A stretch of DNA of 64,000 nucleotides from Candidatus Methanoperedenaceae archaeon (GTDB lineage Archaea > Halobacteriota > Methanosarcinia > Methanosarcinales > Methanoperedenaceae), in assembly GCA_963753595.1 (NCBI GenBank), contig CAVWCX010000024.1, positions 123,496-187,495 on the forward strand, written 5' to 3'. A model generated the notes under the pieces. That model worked only from the letters and a program-made list of their open reading frames with translations. It made no database searches and was not told the origin of the DNA. Below are positions 4,981-47,368 of the stretch, one piece after another. Numbering within the stretch: the first letter of the stretch is position 1; each line of letters begins with the position of its first letter. The position numbers and the translations under genes are program-made.

Positions 4981-5012
4981 TAAAAGGATTATTTTAATCA
5001 GTTATATGAATA

Positions 5013-6104
5013 ATGAAGAGAGGCACTAAATTGAAAATATTAATAGATATCGGGCATCCAGCACATGTTCATTTCTTCAAATATTTTATCTCAAATATGA
5101 AGGAAAAAGGCCACAAAGTGTTAGTTACTGCCAGAAATAAGGATGTAACATTGGATTTATTGAAAGCATATCAAATTGATTTTATTCCAGTAGGTGCAAT
5201 AGGAAATACTAAATTAGATCTGATTACTGAATGGATGAAAAGGGATTATGAAATAGTTAAAATTGCAGGTAAGTTTAATCCTGATATTTTAATGGGAATG
5301 TTAAACCCATGCGCTGCTCATGCGTCAAAATTACTTAGAAAAAAATCAGTTATTTTTAATGATTCCGAAGTGGTAGCATCAACCGCTCTTATAACTTATC
5401 CATTTGCAGATGTTATCTGTACACCAATGAATTTTAGTAAGAATCTAGGTAAAAAACATGTTAGATTTAATGGATATAAGGAACTCGCCTATTTGCATCC
5501 CAACCATTTTAAACCTAATCCAGATATTTTTAAAGATTTAAATATAGATATCAATGACAAATATATCGTCATGCGTTTTGTCGCATGGAAAGCTGGTCAT
5601 GATGTAAAACAAAGAGGTTTTGATTTAAATACTAAAATAAAATGTGTCAGAGAACTGGAAAAGTATGGTAGAGTATTCATCTCCTCGGAAGATAAACTTC
5701 CTAAGGAACTGGAGGATTATCGCATAAAATTTCCACCAGAAAAAATGCATAGCCTTTTGTATTATGCACAAATGCTGATTGGGGATAGCCAAACTATGAC
5801 AACCGAAGCTGCCGTTTTAGGAACTCCTGCTATTCGTTATAATACATTTGTTGGCGAAAAAGACATGAGTAATTTTATTGAACTTGAGAAAAAATATGTT
5901 CTCATCCATAGTTATGATGATCCAGACAAAGCCATTAACAAAGCGATCCAACTAATACAGAGGCCAAACCTAAAAGAAGAATGGAAAGGTAAAAGAGAGA
6001 TGCTTCTAAAAGATAAAATCGATGTGACTGAATTTATGATTTGGTTTATTGAAAATTATCCCAAGAGTCTTGAGAAAATAAGAGAAAATGAAATATTAGG
6101 TTAG
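5013..6104 (+). CDS. DUF354 family protein (GT-B-like)
   Basis: Motifs 'ILIDIGHPAHVHFFK', 'GYKELAYLHP' and 'TMTTEAAVLGTPAI'. Confidence 0.85.
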   Translation: MKRGTKLKILIDIGHPAHVHFFKYFISNMKEKGHKVLVTARNKDVTLDLLKAYQIDFIPVGAIGNTKLDLITEWMKRDYEIVKIAGKFNPDILMGMLNPCAAHASKLLRKKSVIFNDSEVVASTALITYPFADVICTPMNFSKNLGKKHVRFNGYKELAYLHPNHFKPNPDIFKDLNIDINDKYIVMRFVAWKAGHDVKQRGFDLNTKIKCVRELEKYGRVFISSEDKLPKELEDYRIKFPPEKMHSLLYYAQMLIGDSQTMTTEAAVLGTPAIRYNTFVGEKDMSNFIELEKKYVLIHSYDDPDKAINKAIQLIQRPNLKEEWKGKREMLLKDKIDVTEFMIWFIENYPKSLEKIRENEILG

Positions 6105-6105
6105 C

Positions 6106-7935
6106 ATGTGCGGCATCAATGGATTCAATTGGAAAGATACAGCTCTAATAGAAGATATGAACCGAGCAACAAAACATAGAGGTCCAGATGACAAAGGGAT
6201 TTATGTCGATGAAAAGACCTCATTGGGTCATGTTCGACTTTCAATAATTGACTTGTCGGAAAAAGGCCATCAGCCGATGTCTAATGAAGATGGAACGATA
6301 TGGATAACCTATAATGGGGAAGTTTATAATTTTCAGGAGTTAAGGTCTGACCTGTTAAAAAAAGGGCATGTATTTAAAAGCAATACTGATACTGAAGTAA
6401 TTATCCATGCCTATGAAGAATATGGTTTAGACTGTGTAAATCAATTTAACGGCATGTGGGCTTTTTGTATATACAACAAAAACAAAGATATTCTGGTTTT
6501 AAGCAGGGATCAATTTGCTATCAAGCCTCTTTATTATTATATAGAAAATAATAAATTTATTTTTTCCTCCATGATCTCTGGAATCTTAAGTCATGAAATT
6601 AAGACTGCTCCAAATGAGAGGGCGATAATGGACTATCTCGCATTCAACCTTGAGCACCATAAACAATATTCATTTTTTGAAAATATATACTCGCTGCCAC
6701 AAGGTAGCACACTGACATATGACCTTAAAACCAATGGTCATAATATCAAGCAATGGTATCAATTAAAATTTAGAAGCGTGGAAAATGAAGGGATTATTCG
6801 AGACAAATTTATAGAGAGTGTCAGATTAAGGACAATATCAGATGTTCCAGTAGGCAGTTGTTTGAGCGGCGGAATTGATTCCTCGGCAATAGTGTGCACT
6901 CTGGATATGATTTTAAAAAATAAATTTTTTACATTTTCTCTTGTCGTGCCTGGAAGCTCGAAGGATGAGAGTAAATATATCAAAGAGGTTGGAAGGAATA
7001 CAAAGACGCAACAATTCTTCACTACGATAGGCGTTGATGACTTTCTAAAAGAAGTGGATGACTTTATTATTGCGCAGGAAGAGCCAGTAACAGGATTAAG
7101 TCCATATGCTCAATATCGAGTAATGAAACTTGCCCATGAACAAGGCACGAAAGTGCTTCTTGACGGGCAGGGTGGAGATGAGATATTTGTAGGATATGTG
7201 TATTATTTTAGTTATTATTTTTATGAATTATTTACAAAATTTAAGTGGTATACGTTGATTAAAGAAATGGTGCTATATATAAAAAATTTTAAAAATGTTT
7301 ATCCACACTCAGTGCTTGCATTTTTATTCCTGCCGGAATCGCTGAAATATATCTTATGGAAAACATTTAGCAATAAATGGATAAATCATGAACTGCTTGA
7401 GAAAGTATGTGTCGATAAAGACCCACGATGGAAAGCCATGAGCCTGAATGATAGTCTTAGATTAACACTTTTTTCTACTGCGATTCCGCATCTATTGCGA
7501 TGGGAAGATAAAAACTCTATGAGGTGGAGCATTGAAAGCAGGGTTCCATTTCTGGATGTTGGGCTTGTAGAAACGGCATATTCTCTACCCTCAGAACAAA
7601 AATTATTCAATGGAAGGACAAAAGTAATTTTTAAAAGGACATTGGATACTCTTATTCCAAAGATGATACAAAATAGGAAGGATAAAATTGGATTTGAAGC
7701 ACCGGTAGATGCTCTTTTCAGGAATGAAACGATCGTAGAATTTTGTAAAGAAATTATTTATTCTGAAAGTTTTAAGAACAGACCTTATTGGAAATGGAAT
7801 GAAGTGGAAAAAATATTTATTAGTCATATTCAAAACAAAAAGAATGCAGGTGATACGATTTGGAAGTGGATAAATCTGGAAATATGGTTGAGGGAATTTT
7901 TTAATGAACAAAAAATCAGAAGAGTCAAAAGTTAA
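6106..7935 (+). CDS. asnB: asparagine synthase (glutamine-hydrolysing) family amidotransferase, glycan-associated
   Basis: N-terminal MCGI; motifs HRGPD, RLSIID, NGEVYN, LSGGIDSS, DGQGGDE and ESRVPFLD. Confidence 0.95.
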   Translation: MCGINGFNWKDTALIEDMNRATKHRGPDDKGIYVDEKTSLGHVRLSIIDLSEKGHQPMSNEDGTIWITYNGEVYNFQELRSDLLKKGHVFKSNTDTEVIIHAYEEYGLDCVNQFNGMWAFCIYNKNKDILVLSRDQFAIKPLYYYIENNKFIFSSMISGILSHEIKTAPNERAIMDYLAFNLEHHKQYSFFENIYSLPQGSTLTYDLKTNGHNIKQWYQLKFRSVENEGIIRDKFIESVRLRTISDVPVGSCLSGGIDSSAIVCTLDMILKNKFFTFSLVVPGSSKDESKYIKEVGRNTKTQQFFTTIGVDDFLKEVDDFIIAQEEPVTGLSPYAQYRVMKLAHEQGTKVLLDGQGGDEIFVGYVYYFSYYFYELFTKFKWYTLIKEMVLYIKNFKNVYPHSVLAFLFLPESLKYILWKTFSNKWINHELLEKVCVDKDPRWKAMSLNDSLRLTLFSTAIPHLLRWEDKNSMRWSIESRVPFLDVGLVETAYSLPSEQKLFNGRTKVIFKRTLDTLIPKMIQNRKDKIGFEAPVDALFRNETIVEFCKEIIYSESFKNRPYWKWNEVEKIFISHIQNKKNAGDTIWKWINLEIWLREFFNEQKIRRVKS

Positions 7936-9103
7936 TAAAAGTCTACTATTTGTGTCCCATAATTATAGTACATTTGTTAAGGATCAAATAGAACAAGTAT
8001 CGGATAATTTTAATAACATAACTGTTTTGTCCAGATATAATCCAATTTCGGAGATCTCAAATATCTTTCCGATACATCGCCTGAGACCATTTAGAAAGGC
8101 ATCGATAATTGATCTATCAAACAAGCCTTCCAATGTTAATGTAATAGTTACACCAATATTTTATTTACCTATTGATTCAGGATATAAAAATCTTGGAGAG
8201 AAGCATTTTAAAATAGTAGATAGAAAAATAGAGAGGGATAACATAAGATTCGATTTGATTCATTCTCACTTTCTATGGTCTGCAGGATATGTTGGAGCAA
8301 AACTAAAGGAGAAATATAATATACCATTTGTAGTTACTGCTCATGGCTATGATATTTATGATTTACCTTTTAGAGACAATGAATGGAAAGAAAAAATCAG
8401 ATACGTTCTTGATTCTGCAGATTGTATTATAACGGTAAGTGATAGTAATCTGAAATGTATTAGAGAATTAAATGCGAAAACACCAGTCCAGGTAATGCCA
8501 AATGGTTTCCGAAGAGATCTGTTTTACCCACAAGATTCAAAAGAATGCAGAAAAAAATTAAATCTCCCACTCGATCGAATGATATTATTGAGCGTTGGAT
8601 GTGTATATGACGAAGTAAAAGGTGGGAAATATTTAATAGAGGCAATAAGAGAAATAGTAAAGTATAGAAAAGAAATTCTATGTATCATTATAGGCAGCGG
8701 AGCGTTAAAAAATAAATTGCAGAAACAAATTGAAAAAGCAGGATTGAAGAATTATATTATACTAGTTGGAGGGCAACCACATAATGAGATTTCAATCTGG
8801 ATGAATGCGTGTGATGTTTTTGTTCTCCCGAGCTTGAGAGAGAGTTTTGGAGTGGTGCAAATCGAGGCAATGGCCTGCGGAAAACCAATTGTAGCAACTT
8901 ACAATGGGGGAAGTGAAGAAATAATTATTTCAGATGATTATGGGTATTTGTGCGAACCAGCAAATTCAAAAAAGTTAGCAGAAAATATTTTAATGGCATT
9001 AGATAAGGTATGGGATGACAATAAAATAAAAAAATATGTTGAAAAATTTACTTGGAAGAACGTCGTAAAAGAGATATTAGAAACATATTCCATTGTTTTA
9101 TGA
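7904..9103 (+). CDS. glycosyltransferase family 4
   Basis: 'TAHGYD' and the EX7E motif 'PSLRESFGVVQIEAMACGKP'. Confidence 0.92.
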   Translation: MNKKSEESKVNKSLLFVSHNYSTFVKDQIEQVSDNFNNITVLSRYNPISEISNIFPIHRLRPFRKASIIDLSNKPSNVNVIVTPIFYLPIDSGYKNLGEKHFKIVDRKIERDNIRFDLIHSHFLWSAGYVGAKLKEKYNIPFVVTAHGYDIYDLPFRDNEWKEKIRYVLDSADCIITVSDSNLKCIRELNAKTPVQVMPNGFRRDLFYPQDSKECRKKLNLPLDRMILLSVGCVYDEVKGGKYLIEAIREIVKYRKEILCIIIGSGALKNKLQKQIEKAGLKNYIILVGGQPHNEISIWMNACDVFVLPSLRESFGVVQIEAMACGKPIVATYNGGSEEIIISDDYGYLCEPANSKKLAENILMALDKVWDDNKIKKYVEKFTWKNVVKEILETYSIVL

Positions 9104-9132
9104 TTTTATTTTTTAGCTTATCCAAGGCATAT

Positions 9133-11103
9133 TTATCCAGATAATTTTATATATGCTTTTGCTTCCCGAGTATCATAAATATTCGAATAATTATTATCTA
9201 GGTATTCTTTAAAATACCTCCCAAGAATCATGCTTGGATTCCTGTAACCTTGAACTTGAACTGGTATGTCCATGCTGCTTTTTCTCCAGATTAACAGCTT
9301 ATTATCTATAGACTCCCAATCAAAATCTCCTTCTGGTGTTGTTTGAAAAGCACTAGTATTACCTCTTTTCAAATACGTTTCGAATGGTCTAACAGACGTT
9401 TGAAGATCTGAAACAATATAATTTGAATAAGAATTGTTCATCTTAGCAAACATTTTCATTTCAGACTCTGTCCAGACCATCTTTTGATTTAACTCCTTTC
9501 CATAAATAGGAGAATCAAGATTGGAAAATGAATTTGTAATCATGAAAAAAGAAAATGTTGACAAAAGTACTAATAGAAAAATAATATTGTAGTGTTTATT
9601 TCTACTTGTGCCGACAAAATTGAAAAATCCAATACCAGCAAATAATACAAAAGTTGTGTAAATAAACGCAGGCCATCTATAGGGAGTAATATTCCTCATA
9701 CCCATTACAGGAAAGGCAAAGAAAATGAAGAATAACACAATTAGCATGAATATCAAAGAAAATATTGTTTTATTAGTATATTTTGTTGACAAACTATACA
9801 GAGACCCAATAATGCCAAAAAAGATGAATATCAGAAATCCAAGAATGTTAAAAATCGATGCCCAAGAATCTCCGATATTTGAAGTAGTACTTCGTCCCAA
9901 AAATTCAGCTTCTTTTGATAATGAATCAACAAATCCCCTTGTTATTGAATCAAAGAAGGGATAGGTTTGATCCATCCAATGAAAGGTCAATATTATTACA
10001 GAAAGCATGCAAATCGTAATACTGATTGGAAATTCCCCGGAGTATTTCACATCCCGACATATAGTTTTGAAAATAGAAGAACCGATATATAACGAAACCA
10101 ATGATAAAACTAAAATCATTGATGAAACCGTATGTGTCCAAACAATCAAAAATAGGAATAAAATTAATAACGACTTATAGATAATGGCAAATTTGTCCTT
10201 TTGAACGATCAATAGATAAATTCCAATAGTATATAATGCGATACCAAATGTCATTGCGATTACTTGAACGCTCCATTGTATGTGAAAATCGGAAAAATTA
10301 ATAAATAACATCGAGAACATTGCAATGTTCGTATTGTTAGTTAAATTCCTGACAATAAGATAAACAAAAATTGTACTAAGAACCAGAACAGTTCCTGCAA
10401 CATACATAGATTCTTTTACGGTAAAATCCATAAGAATACCTGTAATTGCAGTAAAGATGTGCATAATTGGATAATTGCTGTAATAATCGTGTGTCTGAGG
10501 TAAATAACTGGTACCAAGTAATGAAATATCATTAATAAATTCAGCGTGATACCATGGATCAGAACCTAGAGGATAAGGGGATATAAAGTATGCACTGTAT
10601 CTTAATATAAGAGATACAAGAAATATCTTAAAGATTGTTTTATATATATTAAAATTTTTAACCATATTTGTGGACAATATTTCCAACCCTAAAAAAGCGA
10701 CTGCAACTGAAATACTAATAAAGAACATTGGAGGTCGATAATAAGAAGTTGCAAGATAATAGCTAATTAATGCAGTCACAATACAAATCCAGTAGACAAT
10801 TTCAATTATTTTCAATGTCTTACCGTCAAAAATGAAAATTAGCCCCGTCTTTTCTGTTAACAATGCTTGCCTATTTTTCAAATACATGAGACAAGCTATA
10901 GTGAGAAATGGCCCCAACATTATCAGGTAATTATTGCTGTATATCAAATTTAATGATGTAATGAATATACCCAAAATACTTCCAATTACAGCAAATTTAC
11001 CATCAATTGAAAAAACATCAGATCTTTTTATTTTTCGAGCGATTAGTATATAGAATATCAATGTAAGGATTATGACAATCGGTGCAATCTCTTTGAATAG
11101 CAT
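9133..11103 (-). CDS. multi-pass membrane protein, GT-C-like (possible glycan transferase or polymerase)
   Basis: More than 12 hydrophobic segments; 'GSDPWYH' and 'YY.NYP..H' loop motifs; glycan-locus context. Confidence 0.65.
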   Translation of the reverse strand: MLFKEIAPIVIILTLIFYILIARKIKRSDVFSIDGKFAVIGSILGIFITSLNLIYSNNYLIMLGPFLTIACLMYLKNRQALLTEKTGLIFIFDGKTLKIIEIVYWICIVTALISYYLATSYYRPPMFFISISVAVAFLGLEILSTNMVKNFNIYKTIFKIFLVSLILRYSAYFISPYPLGSDPWYHAEFINDISLLGTSYLPQTHDYYSNYPIMHIFTAITGILMDFTVKESMYVAGTVLVLSTIFVYLIVRNLTNNTNIAMFSMLFINFSDFHIQWSVQVIAMTFGIALYTIGIYLLIVQKDKFAIIYKSLLILFLFLIVWTHTVSSMILVLSLVSLYIGSSIFKTICRDVKYSGEFPISITICMLSVIILTFHWMDQTYPFFDSITRGFVDSLSKEAEFLGRSTTSNIGDSWASIFNILGFLIFIFFGIIGSLYSLSTKYTNKTIFSLIFMLIVLFFIFFAFPVMGMRNITPYRWPAFIYTTFVLFAGIGFFNFVGTSRNKHYNIIFLLVLLSTFSFFMITNSFSNLDSPIYGKELNQKMVWTESEMKMFAKMNNSYSNYIVSDLQTSVRPFETYLKRGNTSAFQTTPEGDFDWESIDNKLLIWRKSSMDIPVQVQGYRNPSMILGRYFKEYLDNNYSNIYDTREAKAYIKLSG

Positions 11104-42414: not shown

Positions 42415-43044
42415 ATGGATAATATGGAATATAAAGGAACTACCACAATAGGGTTAGTTTGCGATGAGGGTGTAGTATTGGCCACTGAGAAAAGAGCTAC
42501 GATGGGACATTTTATTGCAAGTAAGGATGCAAAGAAAGTCTATCAGATTGATGATCTCGTGGCAATGACCACAGCAGGCTCGGTAGGGGATGCTCAAAGA
42601 CTTGTAAAATGGATGCAGGTCGAGTCAAAACTCTACAAAATGCGAAGAGAAGAACCCATGACTGTAAAGGGTATAGTAAGTTTACTGGCAAATATCTTGA
42701 GCGGAAACAGATATTACCCTTATTACGTTCAGCTTCTTGTTGGCGGAGTCGATAAAAATGGTCCTGGTATCTATTCGCTTGACGCTGTAGGCGGAATTAT
42801 TGAAGAGAAAAAAGCGGTTTCAACAGGTTCTGGTTCACCCATGGCATACGGTGTTCTTGAAGACAGATATGTAGATAATATGCCAATTGACGATGGAGTT
42901 GAACTCGCAGTGCGCGCACTGCATAATGCCATGAAGCGTGATTCAGCATCAGGTGATGGTATTAATGTCGTAAAGATCACTAAAGATGGATATATGCAAG
43001 TGGAAGATAGCGAAGTCAAGAAAATACGTGACACACTAACATAA
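42415..43044 (+). CDS. psmB: proteasome subunit beta
   Basis: Propeptide then 'G-TTTIGL'; 'AGSVGDAQ', 'GSGS' and 'RDSASG'. Confidence 0.97.
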
Positions 43045-43095: not shown

Positions 43096-45009
43096 ATGAC
43101 AGTTGAAGAAGTATTAAATGATTTGAAAAAGAAAATAAAAGCACAGCTTCCCAAAGATATCACGATATCTGATGTGGATTTTGAGGGGCCTGAACTTGTT
43201 ATTTATACTGAAGAGCCACGAAAATTCGCTGATGACGGGGATCTTATCAAGGGTCTTGCCAAGGAACTGAGAAAACGTCTTGTGGTCAGGCCGGACCCGA
43301 AAGTCCTGGCACAGCCCGAAGAAGCGATCACTGCTATTGCAAAGATCGTTTCAGCAGAATCCGGAATTTCAAATCATTTTTTTGACGTGGATACCGGTGA
43401 GGTGGTAATTGAAGCGGAGAAACCAGGTCTTGTCATAGGAAGGCATGGCGAAACACTTCGCGAGATCACTAAAGAGATCGGATGGACACCAAAGGTGGTC
43501 CGTACACCTCCTATGAAATCAACGACTGTGAATAATATCCGCCAGTTCATGCGCGCCAACAAGGAAGAGCGAAAGACTCTTCTTAAAACCATAGGCCGAA
43601 AGATCCATCGGGGTGTTTCATCCAAGGATAAATGGGTACGATTGACCACTCTGGGCGCCTGCCGTGAAGTAGGACGAAGTTGTTTTTTGCTCTCGACCCC
43701 TGAAACAAGGATCTTAATAGACTGTGGCGTAAACGTTGGCGGTGACGATAATGGCTCACCCTACCTTTATGTGCCTGAGGTCCATCCCATAAGCCAGATC
43801 GATGCTGTAGTTCTTACTCATGCACATCTTGACCATATCGGGCTTGTTCCGTTATTGTATAAATATGGATTTGAAGGGCCAGTTTATTGCACGCCTCCCA
43901 CGAGAGACCTGATGGCTTTACTTCAACTGGATTATATTGATGTTGCCGCCCGTGAGGGCAAGAAAAGCCCTTATGAATCGGTTATGATCCGTGAAGTTCT
44001 CAAACATACCATTACATTGAATTATGGGGATGTCACAGATATCGGCCCGGACATGAAACTGACATTCCATAATGCAGGTCATATCCTTGGTTCTTCTGTC
44101 GCTCATTTCCATGTCGGGGATGGCCTGTATAATATAGCTTTTACCGGCGATTTCAAATATGAAAAGACACGCCTCTTCGATCCTGCGATCAATGATTTCC
44201 CGCGAGTGGAAACAATTGTCATGGAAGCCACTTACGGTGGGTCAAGGGATATGCAGCCTTCAAGAAAAGATGCTGAACGGCATTTGCAGGAAATAGCTAA
44301 AGAAACCCTTGACAACGGCGGGAATCTTCTGGTACCGACATTCGCTGTAGGAAGAAGCCAGGAAGTCATGATCGTGCTTGAGGAAGCAATCCGCAAAGGA
44401 ATAATCCCGGATGTGCCGGTCTATCTTGACGGTATGATATATGAAGCAACAGCGATTCATACAACGCACCCTGAATATTTAAACAATGAACTGAGAAACC
44501 AGATTTTCCATAAAGGTATGAACCCGTTCCTTGCAAAATGTTTCGTCCAGGTGGATTCAAAAGAAAAACGCCAGAAAATCCTGGATGACCGTGACCCCTG
44601 TATCGTTCTTGCAACTTCAGGCATGATGAACGGCGGCCCTGTCATGGAATACTTAAAGGCATTCGGACCAGAAGAAAAGAATACGCTTGTTTTCGTAGGT
44701 TACCAGGCAGAAGGTACACTTGGCAGACGTATCCAGAAAGGCTGGAAAGAAATACCAATGCATGCAGCCGGAGGAAGGACCGAGACCGTAAAGATCAACA
44801 TGAATATTGATACAGTTGATGGATTTTCAGGTCATTCTGACAGGATGCAGCTTATGGAGTATATCAGGAAAATGAGACCAAGACCTGAGCATGTCCTGAC
44901 ACAGCATGGTGACGAAAAGAACTGCATGGATCTAGCCAGTTCGATATATCGCAAATTCAAGATCGAGACCAGGGCGCCAATGAATCTGGAAACGATAAGG
45001 CTTGCGTAG
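43096..45009 (+). CDS. fttA: beta-CASP ribonuclease aCPSF1 (FttA)
   Basis: N-terminal KH domains; 'HAHLDH', 'AGHILGS' and 'GFSGHSD'; C-terminal 'NLETIRL'; next to psmB. Confidence 0.95.
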
Positions 45010-45104
45010 CGTGATTTATTAATAGGTTTCAAATGAATTAGCGTCCAATGGATTCCTATTTTCAACCAAAAAGTATTAATCTTTATAAAACAAGATAATA
45101 ATTT

Positions 45105-45132
45105 ACCATATCAAGAACGATTTTGATATGGT
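45105..45132. promoter_or_regulatory. palindromic operator-like site downstream of a TATA box
   Basis: ACCATATCAA-N8-TTGATATGGT; TTTATAAA at 45082-45089. Confidence 0.5.
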
Positions 45133-45140
45133 GCACGCTA

Positions 45141-45407
45141 TGATGAGCTAGCAAGAGATCGCTGGAAAAGCCTATTGGAAATAGAAAGAACAGTTCCAGG
45201 TTTCCCGGGCGTAATTGCCCTATGACTGTCCATAGTCTAAAAGGAAGCGGCTCGACTGGGATTTCACTCGGTAAGGGGTGCTGTAAGAAAGCGCATGGGG
45301 AGTGGAAGAAAGCATATAGAGCGCAATTTGTGGCGAAGTAAACACAAATATTTGTGTTACAAGGGTGCCGCAGGCCCTCCGAAAACCACCAGGGGGTCAG
45401 CTCATCA
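45141..45407 (+). ncRNA. candidate structured non-coding RNA (~270 nt)
   Basis: 9-bp closing stem TGATGAGCT/AGCTCATCA; several internal hairpins; GC-richer than its flanks; upstream TATA and downstream T-tract; no listed ORF. Confidence 0.55.
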
Positions 45408-45673
45408 ACCCACTCATATATTTTGCTTTTTATTATATATGTAGTATAATAAATTTTTGTTTATTGGATTTTGTGCTATCTTGTTACTACAATAATCAAA
45501 ACACTATTACAGAATGAACCTTTTAAATCATAAAATACATATTATGCCCCTATTTCTTGTGGGATATTATTGGTGCCACTTTATTTACACTATACTATTT
45601 ATCAGTGCTACTAAAAAATAAGAATATAGGGAAAAACGGGTTGAAAAAAGATCAGGGGATAGGAGAAGAGCCT

Positions 45674-45868
45674 ATGTTAAGAACTCGGCAAGAGAGAGTG
45701 AAATTATTAAAAGCTGGCATTTTTGGGAAAACAATAGAAAGGCTGTATATAACACATAATAATTTCAAAATAATGGGTAATCCCATTTTAGAGATGATTG
45801 AAATTAATACTCACAAAATTAAGGATATCGCTCTAAACCAGGAAGCAACCGCTGAATTAAGTTTTTAG
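45674..45868 (+). CDS. small hypothetical protein
   Basis: AGGAG RBS before the ATG at 45674; MLRTRQERVKLLKAGI... Confidence 0.55.
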   Translation: MLRTRQERVKLLKAGIFGKTIERLYITHNNFKIMGNPILEMIEINTHKIKDIALNQEATAELSF

Positions 45869-45925
45869 ATAGGGGAGTTAATAGTAAAATTTTTCAAAAG
45901 CCACGTTTTGACCCCCCTATTTTTT
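45869..45925. terminator. inverted repeat and T-tract between convergent genes
   Basis: ATAGGGG...CCCCTAT followed by TTTTT. Confidence 0.4.
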
Positions 45926-45957
45926 CGATCTCCAAAATCGTATTCTGAACTCTTGAG

Positions 45958-46248
45958 TCATCGAGAGACGTTAATTTTTTCCCAGATTTGATTGAAATCA
46001 TTTAAATTTGCTCTCAAATTTTTGGAAAGAAAATATATTTTACCGTATTTGTCGCCTTCTGTTGTGATTATTCCATTTTTGGCAAGGACATCAAGATGGT
46101 GCCTGGTAGTTTTATAATCTATCTTCAAAGCCTCAGCTAATTGATTTGCATTATACGGTTTATCAATAAGCTGCTTCAGGATAAACCCACGGGTATATCC
46201 ACCTCGCGTTCCTGCGAACATTTGCCAAAGCAACCTATTCATCCACAC
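45958..46248 (-). CDS. ArsR-like winged-helix transcriptional regulator
   Basis: 'LLW..FAGTRGG.TR', 'NANQLAE.L..DYKT.RHHL.VL' and 'YG..YFLS'. Confidence 0.88.
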   Translation of the reverse strand: MWMNRLLWQMFAGTRGGYTRGFILKQLIDKPYNANQLAEALKIDYKTTRHHLDVLAKNGIITTEGDKYGKIYFLSKNLRANLNDFNQIWEKINVSR

Positions 46249-46512: not shown

Positions 46513-47301
46513 CTATTTTAAAATTTCCTGTGGAGCGCCGCACAATTTCACCAGCGCCTCAGCCTCGATAAAGTGGAGGCTGGCGGGAATTAAGAGGGTG
46601 TGCAGCGGTCCTCCAAAATCATATTCTTTTATTTTTTCAAGATAATCCGAATGAACAGATGGGGATGGGGAACCGGCGCGTGCAATACCGATCGCAAGAG
46701 CATTTACAAGCACTCCTTCACCCCTTCTGTCTTCCATTTCAAGAAGAAGCGAAGCAGCTTTTCTAATATCCATAAACCCTTTTTCCCGGTCAATGTCAAG
46801 AAAAACAATAGTATGCAGGTCATTTTTCTTGTTCATTTTTATCGTATCATAAGGAGCTTCGGAAACGATCGTCTTTTCATTCCTCGTATAAGGGAATGGG
46901 ATCGTGGTGGATTTCCCGAACCTGTAATTCTGGAGGCCGCTTAATCCCGAAACAGCCGAATAGATGGATGGCGCATGGATGATCGAAGTTTCAATACCAA
47001 GATCTTTTGCACGTAAACGAAGATCAATATGTGTGGTCGCAACCATAGCATCTCCTCCGCTTAAAAATACCACATTTTCCTTAATTGCTCTTGATAACCA
47101 GACTGGTTCTAACTCAACTTCTTCCCGTGAGAGTACGATCAACTTCTTTCCATAGAATTTTTCAATTTTTTCTATGGAAGTACCAATAAGATTTGAAGTA
47201 TAGAATTCAGCATAGACCGCGTCAGCATTTTTTACTGCTTCCAGTCCTTTTACCGTTATGTCTTTTTCATCATATAGCCCAAGTCCGATAAATGTAAGCA
47301 T
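46513..47301 (-). CDS. dph5: diphthine synthase
   Basis: Motifs 'MLTFIGLGL', 'EFYTS', 'GD..VATTH', 'GLQNYRFGK', 'LHT..FLD' and 'GGPLH'. Confidence 0.95.
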   Translation of the reverse strand: MLTFIGLGLYDEKDITVKGLEAVKNADAVYAEFYTSNLIGTSIEKIEKFYGKKLIVLSREEVELEPVWLSRAIKENVVFLSGGDAMVATTHIDLRLRAKDLGIETSIIHAPSIYSAVSGLSGLQNYRFGKSTTIPFPYTRNEKTIVSEAPYDTIKMNKKNDLHTIVFLDIDREKGFMDIRKAASLLLEMEDRRGEGVLVNALAIGIARAGSPSPSVHSDYLEKIKEYDFGGPLHTLLIPASLHFIEAEALVKLCGAPQEILK

Positions 47302-47368
47302 AATTCTTAATAGGAATCTATTCTTTGTAAGTCTTGCCATAGAAAACTATAAAAATTAAGTGAGCTTT

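Follow-up and report, generated by a model that had tools for sequence, protein, structure and literature searches.

An abundant structured RNA gene next to aCPSF1 in Candidatus Methanoperedenaceae very probably represents an undescribed RNA family of ANME-2 archaea

In the genome of a Candidatus Methanoperedenaceae archaeon (NCBI GenBank assembly GCA_963753595.1, contig CAVWCX010000024.1), a GC-richer block follows the gene of aCPSF1, and the question is what this block encodes. The stretch analysed here, hereafter the window, comprises 64,000 nucleotides (positions 123,496 to 187,495 of the contig, forward strand), and all the positions below are counted from its first letter. A sequence-only reading of the window had pointed to a structured RNA of ~270 nt, either a new class of non-coding RNA or a strongly remodelled relative of the signal recognition particle (SRP) RNA. 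According to our analyses, the interval 45104-45424 on the plus strand is, with high confidence, an independent gene for a stable, very abundant, structured non-coding RNA of ~320 nt, which belongs to an undescribed family detected in anaerobic methanotrophic (ANME) archaea of the ANME-2 group only. Its ends are placed to within ~5–8 nt; the earlier size estimate was a little short, as the 5′ hairpin belongs to the RNA. The G+C fraction is 0.46–0.53 in the RNA interval, compared with 0.24–0.29 in the flanks.

We have searched for relatives of this interval with sequence and covariance methods. Within the genus, a BLAST-type search with 45082-45432 as the query matched 33 of 36 genomes; in five other families of the order it matched 0 of 24. 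It also revealed a second copy in the same genome (G000:C4, 78% identity). From 36 copies of the Methanoperedens family we have built the covariance model R1, which spans the window positions 45098-45428 from end to end with 288.3 bits. Of the other genomes in the genus (g1, Ca. Methanoperedens), R1 detects the RNA in 40 of 44, and it does so in both genomes of the sister genus (g17), with 1–2 copies per genome; the two genomes from two further genera of Methanoperedenaceae (f1) gave no match. In a second family (f2), R1 yields weak but full-length matches in 2 of 20 genomes. A further model, R2, made from six f2 copies, detects the RNA in 14 of the 20 f2 genomes, where it is much diverged, and re-finds the same loci in 9 of 48 f1 genomes. 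Since R2 thus recovers the loci of R1, the homology of the two families holds in both directions. The window copy is the rarer of two paralogues and lies behind aCPSF1 in 3 genomes (3 of the 36 aligned copies), and the main copy is located at G000:C4:24352-24660; R1 finds only these two copies in their own genome.

Does the family share a fold? Two alignments have been used, A1 with the 36 Methanoperedens-family copies in 361 columns and A4 with 58 distinct sequences aligned to the model, and the structure model has 66 pairs in 14 helices. In A1, 96.1% of the cells are paired and 33 of the 66 pairs are changed on both sides, while the shuffles give a mean of 14.7 (0 of 500 as high) and the slid controls 7–14. 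For A4, which was fitted to the model and hence leans towards it, 96.5% are paired and 42 of 66 pairs are changed on both sides, against 18.7 in the shuffles and 12–16 in the slid controls. A covariation test over homologues had been named in advance by the sequence-only reading as a check of its proposal, and this result supports it. The f2 sequences show the common architecture, with 83 predicted pairs, 17 of which have a compensatory change among the six sequences. In addition, G-U pairs, from which the plus strand had been favoured earlier, are frequent on that strand across the homologues, which indicates that the plus strand is the RNA. The lone sequence, in contrast, folds no better than chance (plus strand: -89.5 kcal/mol, z = -1.51, 17 of 200 shuffles as good, i.e., no significant signal; minus strand: z = -0.62), and therefore the structural significance rests on the comparative data. 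When mutual information was scanned for pseudoknots, clade-specific substitutions dominated the signal, and no long-range pair was convincing. The copies share no conserved reading frame: of the 58, 37 have their longest open frame on the minus strand and 21 on the plus strand, and ARAGORN finds 0 genes with a tRNA or transfer-messenger RNA cloverleaf in 44800-45700.

Overall, the molecule is laid out as a 5′ hairpin, a linker, the closing helix P1, a 113-nt multi-junction 5′ module, the small hairpin P8, a four-helix 3′ domain, a tail and T-tracts, all on the plus strand. The 5′ terminal hairpin P0 (ACCATATCAA / TTGATATGGT) occupies 45105-45132, with 95.6% of cells paired and 3 of 5 modelled pairs changed on both sides. 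It corresponds to a 10-bp palindrome (45105-45114/45123-45132) that had been read as operator-like; the palindrome is real, and the covariation identifies it as an RNA hairpin instead of an operator. In f2 a longer covarying hairpin stands at this position. The linker GCACGCTAT from P0 to P1 (45133-45141) is nearly invariant in the Methanoperedens family; it also occurs in the f2 genera g2 and g13 (as GCATGCTAC), and is absent in the genus g10. P1 closes the molecule by pairing of GATGAGCT (45142-45149) with AGCTCATC (45399-45406), with 98.3% of cells paired and 3 of 8 pairs changed on both sides; the closing helix had been recognised correctly before.

The 5′ module (45154-45266) contains the helices P2–P7 in two stacked three-way junctions: P2 (45154-45160/45260-45266), P3 (45169-45172/45249-45252), the P4 hairpin (45175-45199), P5 (45201-45205/45243-45247), the P6 hairpin (45207-45220) and the P7 hairpin (45224-45237). 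Within the Methanoperedens family, the strands at its junctions hardly vary, and the hairpins P6 and P7 are recognisable in both families, with loop sequences partly kept. A possible extra helix of 3 bp, P2b (45163-45165/45256-45258), is compatible with the alignment (94% paired), but shows no both-side change, and we have placed it among the rejected candidates. The module is followed by P8 (45267-45277), a short hairpin with a variable loop, in which 98.6% of cells are paired and 1 of 2 modelled pairs is changed on both sides. The 3′ domain then begins with the P9 hairpin (GCGC/GCGC, 45291-45324; 100% paired, 1 of 4 pairs changed on both sides), whose loop bears an insertion of ~21 nt (~45298-45318) that is confined to the window copy and the two orthologues (3 of 36 rows). 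P10 (45328-45335/45366-45373) encloses the P11 hairpin (45341-45358) within 45328-45373; 6 of 8 pairs of P10 and 5 of 5 pairs of P11 are changed on both sides. The P12 hairpin (GCCC/GGGT, 45374-45397) is paired in 97.9% of cells, its loop length varies widely among the rows, and f2 has a longer equivalent helix. The window copy has the features by which the family is defined, namely P0, P1, the 5′ module with P6 and P7, P12 directly before the P1 3′ strand, and the T-tract.

The sequence elements that the sequence-only reading had listed are all present, at or within 1 nt of the positions it gave, and the homologues decide which of them form helices. Besides P1, the pairing GGGCG/TGCCC (45207-45220) is borne out over the 36 homologues as P6, the 18-nt palindrome 45341-45358 is P11, and the T-tract at 45421-45431 is upheld by the comparison. 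From GGCCCTC/GGGGGTC only the inner GCCC/GGGT is retained, as P12. The five remaining proposals, CTGGAA/TTCCAG, CTATT/AATAG, GCGGC/GCCGC, ACTGGG/CTCGGT and GTGCT/AGCGC, fail in the alignment: they are paired in 73.9% of cells, against 73.4% in shuffles (45 of 500 as high), and CTGGAA/TTCCAG in only 44.5%. The family pairs their bases otherwise, in P2, P3, P4, P9 and P10.

Whether such an RNA is present in cells can be seen from public data. Four public runs, from four studies, contain part of the window region 44300-46000, with contigs mapped at 88% likeness or more; for two of them, X2 and X4, it is doubtful that they are RNA, and these are not used as expression evidence. In the RNA run X1, depth is expressed as the summed word depth of assembled contigs per bin. 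It is 14–191 over the aCPSF1 part (44300-44983), 0.7 at 44984-45040 and 0 at 45041-45097, and then reaches 199,835 at 45098-45154, 90,700 at 45155-45211 and 430,147 at 45212-45268, followed by 10,584 (45269-45325), 5,088 (45326-45382) and 156 (45383-45439), with 0 again over 45440-45781. The cover coincides with the predicted gene and lies about three orders of magnitude above that of the aCPSF1 mRNA, and the silent flanks argue against carry-over of DNA. In X1, the most frequent variant letters and the loose ends belong to the main-copy type; depth is 5,000–10,000 in the bins with the paralogue-specific insertion. X3, which is RNA from a separate study, provides one contig of 185 nt (45115-45299) with 2 differences.

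These data bear on one alternative, that the element acts in cis, either as a structure in the 3′ untranslated region of aCPSF1 or as a leader or riboswitch of the downstream gene. The upstream open reading frame (ORF) of 637 amino acids (43096-45009) is on the same strand and is assigned to aCPSF1/FttA by its Pfam domains (KH_TffA, metallo-beta-lactamase, Beta-Casp and RMMBL); the RNA starts 95 nt past its stop, and the 5′ module is aptamer-like in complexity, as a cis element might be. However, only 3 of the 36 aligned copies lie behind aCPSF1, and the others are found elsewhere with a convergent downstream gene. Moreover, library depth is zero between aCPSF1 and the RNA and nil after it, and the RNA has its own conserved promoter. 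A riboswitch has been rejected on the same grounds, as the next downstream gene is convergent in most copies and the library cover stops at the T-tract. The cis explanation is contradicted by the data, and we consider it very unlikely.

The putative promoter core of the independent gene is placed at 45066-45080 (plus strand), where a purine-rich run and an A/T-rich block (CCAAAAAGTATTAAT) would correspond to the B recognition element (BRE) and the TATA box according to general knowledge of archaeal promoters. This block is conserved in 36 of 36 aligned Methanoperedens-family copies, and f2 has an equivalent at the same distance, ~24 nt before the 5′ hairpin. A TATA box had earlier been seen at 45082 instead. 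At that site, a TATA-like sequence is confined to the window copy and one of the two orthologues; most other copies have GTGATAAAAC or ATGACAAAAC, and the block conserved across both families is the one at 45066-45080. With up to 2 mismatches, the promoter-core 16-mer has 6 matches in the own genome, and only two of them, at the RNA genes, run into an RNA gene; the remaining four appear to be chance matches.

Sequence conservation reaches ~40–95 nt upstream of the 5′ hairpin. Between the TATA-like block and the transcript start, the promoter-proximal DNA at 45084-45104 (plus strand), which overlaps the former "TATA" (45082-45091), contains an ATAAAAC..ATAAT block kept in both families. Since depth is 0 in the bin 45041-45097, most of this segment should lie outside the RNA. 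Such conservation across two families is unusual for a promoter, and the segment may be a site for a transcription factor or regulator. We have also observed repeated GTTAYC-like words further upstream in most copies, and the promoter-proximal equivalent in the loci L078-L094. At the other end, the 3′ tail (AACCC...) and the T-tracts 45421-45424 and 45427-45431 (together 45407-45431, plus strand) form the likely termination site; the tail and the T-run are conserved in both families, and transcription is inferred to terminate at the T-tracts within 45421-45431.

Is the RNA already known under another name? The sequence-only reading had proposed to scan Rfam and to look for a separate canonical SRP RNA in the genome, and both checks speak for a new RNA. 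At gathering thresholds, Rfam 15 (4227 models) gives 0 matches over the whole window. At E ≤ 10 on 44950-45600 there are only two chance-level matches, both outside the RNA, and at E ≤ 1 nothing matches at the RNA in eight diverse homologue loci. A diverged SRP RNA, or another universal ribonucleoprotein (RNP) RNA such as that of RNase P, lacking the canonical interior, would share with the candidate the size (~300 nt), the paired ends, the own promoter and the high abundance. Against this, the genome has a canonical Archaea_SRP RNA (RF01857) at G000:C33:14930-15243 (204.1 bits), whose ends differ from those of the candidate, and a canonical RNaseP_arch RNA (RF00373) at G000:C37:55356-55678 (196.9 bits). 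The SRP model gives no match to the candidate even at E ≤ 10 on 44950-45600, the RNaseP_arch model gives none either, and R1 finds two copies in the genome, neither of which is the SRP locus. The suggested kinship to SRP RNA, drawn from SRP-like ends, does not hold. A derivative of SRP RNA is contradicted by the data, and this whole class of explanation appears extremely improbable.

We have also considered a C/D box RNA, as the heptamer 45140-45146 resembles the C box consensus. It has been rejected, since within P1 the heptamer forms Watson-Crick pairs that show compensatory changes, and f2 does not retain it; the small nucleolar RNA families in Rfam give no match to the candidate. In the literature, no description of this RNA has been found for Methanoperedens, ANME or Methanosarcinales, although supplements could hold unlabelled transcript lists. 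The passages of 10.1101/728089 and PMC9879509 that match such searches concern an annotation method and Borg repeats, and in these passages the RNA is not mentioned. Taking together the missing Rfam match, the covarying structure, the presence in RNA libraries and the literature, the proposal of a new class of non-coding RNA is supported: the window RNA is probably an undescribed cellular RNA, and we rate it as a new family without an assignable class.

How far does the family extend? A scan with a 20-base pattern, with one genome per GTDB species, matched 22 contigs, labelled Candidatus Methanoperedens (13), "uncultured archaeon" (3), ANME-2 cluster archaeon (3), Methanosarcinales archaeon (2) and Nanoarchaeia (1). 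From these labels the genus is identified as Ca. Methanoperedens (ANME-2d), and f2 as another ANME-2 family. The pattern has 23 matches in metagenome contigs and 0 in viral contigs. The locus with the label "Candidatus Nanoarchaeia archaeon" (L080, DATKUV010000036.1) is the same contig as C36 of the f2 genome G093, and the label probably reflects a taxonomy or binning problem.

Covariance searches in other families gave 0 of 27 genomes in f3, 0 of 40 in f4 (with laxer filters), 0 of 6 in f6, 0 of 74 in f7 and 0 of 3 in f8, where these were samples searched with models from diverged relatives, and the results mean "not found" rather than "absent". For f4, a Methanosarcinaceae-like family, R1 gave 0 of 48 and 0 of 67 genomes and R2 0 of 40; a weak R2 match (20 bits, 101 nt) in one genome of 48 has been treated as spurious. 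As part of the whole reading given at the outset, and with the same high confidence, the family seems restricted, as far as detectable, to Methanoperedenaceae and a second ANME-2 family.

The genes around the RNA differ between the paralogues and between the families. Behind the main copy, a conserved, convergent ORF of 171–177 amino acids is found in G000 and almost every other genome, those of the sister genus included, and its stop is within a few tens of bases of the RNA end; in G000 it lies in the locus L033 (2362-2880, minus strand; contig C4). A tblastn search with this protein (174 aa) matched 75 of 121 loci, none of them in f2. The protein has no Pfam match. Its AlphaFold model (mean predicted local distance difference test score 77.7) comprises an N-terminal beta-beta-alpha-beta-beta-alpha domain and a C-terminal winged helix, and its best Foldseek matches, all weak (E 0.008–0.08), are DNA-binding domains of the RosR, Fur, PadR and MarR types. 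Judging from this predicted fold, the protein may regulate the RNA gene. The f2 copies have a TrmI/GCD14-like methyltransferase on one side and a convergent thymidylate kinase on the other; no gene partner is common to both families, and BLASTP between the 174-aa protein and the f2 neighbour gives E = 9.8.

In the window itself, the surroundings are ordinary, with a proteasome subunit at 42415-43044 (plus strand) and a tetrapyrrole methylase-family protein at 46513-47340 (minus strand). On the 3′ side of the RNA there is a short ORF of ~64 amino acids (beginning MLRTRQERVKLL) at 45675-45868 (plus strand), with a purine-rich stretch ahead of the ATG; two orthologous loci (L004 and L005) have similar DNA around the start, and the ORF, queried as a longer 103-aa frame, has no Pfam match.

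What might the RNA do? A hint comes from variant genes in three genomes. These retain the family promoter, P0 and the 5′ strand of P1, contain 2–3 tandem 5′ modules, and lack the 3′ domain. There are three tandem modules in L072 (~1005-1440; G024:C79) and two in L073 (~2001-2290; G020:C151), and L071 and L074 (G035:C81 and C4) are further tandem-module genes. These variants suggest a modular binding platform, as read from their sequences. We tentatively propose that the RNA would be trans-acting and serve as an RNP scaffold or for sequestration, and that the 5′ module would be the functional unit that binds a protein or a small ligand; this is one possible role, and we would not call it the probable one. 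The module is singled out because it alone is multiplied 2–3 times in genes without the 3′ domain. A scaffold or sequestering role is favoured by the hairpins P6 and P7 being recognisable in both families, by the nearly invariant junction strands, and by an abundance that suits a stoichiometric role.

Some of the same features could be read differently. The RNA might be a regulatory small RNA (sRNA) that acts on mRNAs by base pairing through conserved single-stranded stretches, and nearly invariant unpaired stretches do exist in the P0–P1 linker, from P7 to P5, behind P8 and in the internal loop of P10; the stand-alone gene with a terminator also fits. Nevertheless, typical base-pairing sRNAs are much smaller and more simply folded than this molecule, the genus g10 lacks the most conserved of the linkers, and a level ~three orders above the neighbouring mRNA is better explained by a stoichiometric RNP or a sponge, which makes this option unlikely. 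Similarly, the multi-junction architecture, the invariant junction nucleotides, the P6 and P7 loops conserved in both families and the high abundance would suit a new ribozyme or a self-assembling architectural RNA. For this option, however, the contigs, which show such features poorly, contain no processing site, joints or clustered molecule ends, and there is no similarity to the ribozymes in Rfam; we regard it as somewhat less likely still than base pairing.

It is useful to compare the RNA in its proposed trans-acting role with known systems. With the archaeal SRP (7S) RNA (RF01857) it shares the length of ~300 nt, the paired 5′ and 3′ regions, the own promoter, the abundance and stability, and the location among housekeeping genes; SRP RNA, however, is universal, while the new RNA is of restricted distribution. 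The large orphan structured RNAs of bacteria, OLE, raiA, GOLLD and ROOL, are included in Rfam. They are likewise lineage-restricted, elaborately folded, strongly covarying and often very abundant, and their context is uninformative for function. The new RNA differs in being archaeal, has no sequence or structure match to them, and is smaller than OLE, GOLLD and ROOL. Protein-sequestering RNAs of the CsrB/RsmZ type, with repeated binding units, are alike in high abundance and in a module, resembling a binding unit, in 1 to 3 copies, but the repeated unit here is a 113-nt domain of six helices rather than a short hairpin, so that the analogy is one of design only. Among the small RNAs of Methanosarcina, sRNA154 is also a stand-alone non-coding RNA of Methanosarcinales; the new RNA is about twice as long, and neither R1 nor R2 has a credible match in the Methanosarcinaceae-like family f4.

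On the other hand, several observations weigh against our interpretation. The shuffle control for covariation ignores the relatedness of the sequences. The X1 depths derive from assembled contigs and sum over related strains and both paralogues, and cannot rigorously rank genes; contig data show neither the strand nor the exact ends, and most of the X1 depth has letters of the main-copy type, not those of the window paralogue. Among the 44 other Methanoperedens genomes, 4 have no R1 match, including G026, which is 99% complete in ~10 contigs and has no RNA copy by BLAST or R1 (a short BLAST-type match there proved to be chance on follow-up). The RNA may accordingly be neither universal in the genus nor essential. 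The gene neighbours of either family give no functional clue.

ANME archaea consume much of the methane from anoxic sediments and wetlands, and have not been grown in pure culture. To our knowledge, only a small number of large structured RNAs without an assigned function have been described in Archaea, and within the literature searched no large structured RNA has been reported for ANME archaea. "Structured non-coding RNA of unknown function" is already a familiar category, and the novelty here is the family itself. Its covariance model can be used for annotating ANME-2 genomes and metatranscriptomes, and the RNA itself as a sensitive marker of active Methanoperedens and ANME-2 cells, or as a bait for its partner. 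In addition, the natural variants with one, two and three modules provide a ready experiment for locating the functional part of the RNA. In a field RNA library its summed depth exceeds that of a neighbouring housekeeping mRNA about a thousandfold, which makes an important cellular role likely. It is quite conceivable, with chances somewhat short of even, that this is the first large, abundant, lineage-specific orphan RNA of ANME archaea and a new class of RNA, whose duplicable 113-nt module would specifically bind a protein or metabolite and make the RNA the core of an undescribed RNP or sequestration system important for ANME-2 physiology.

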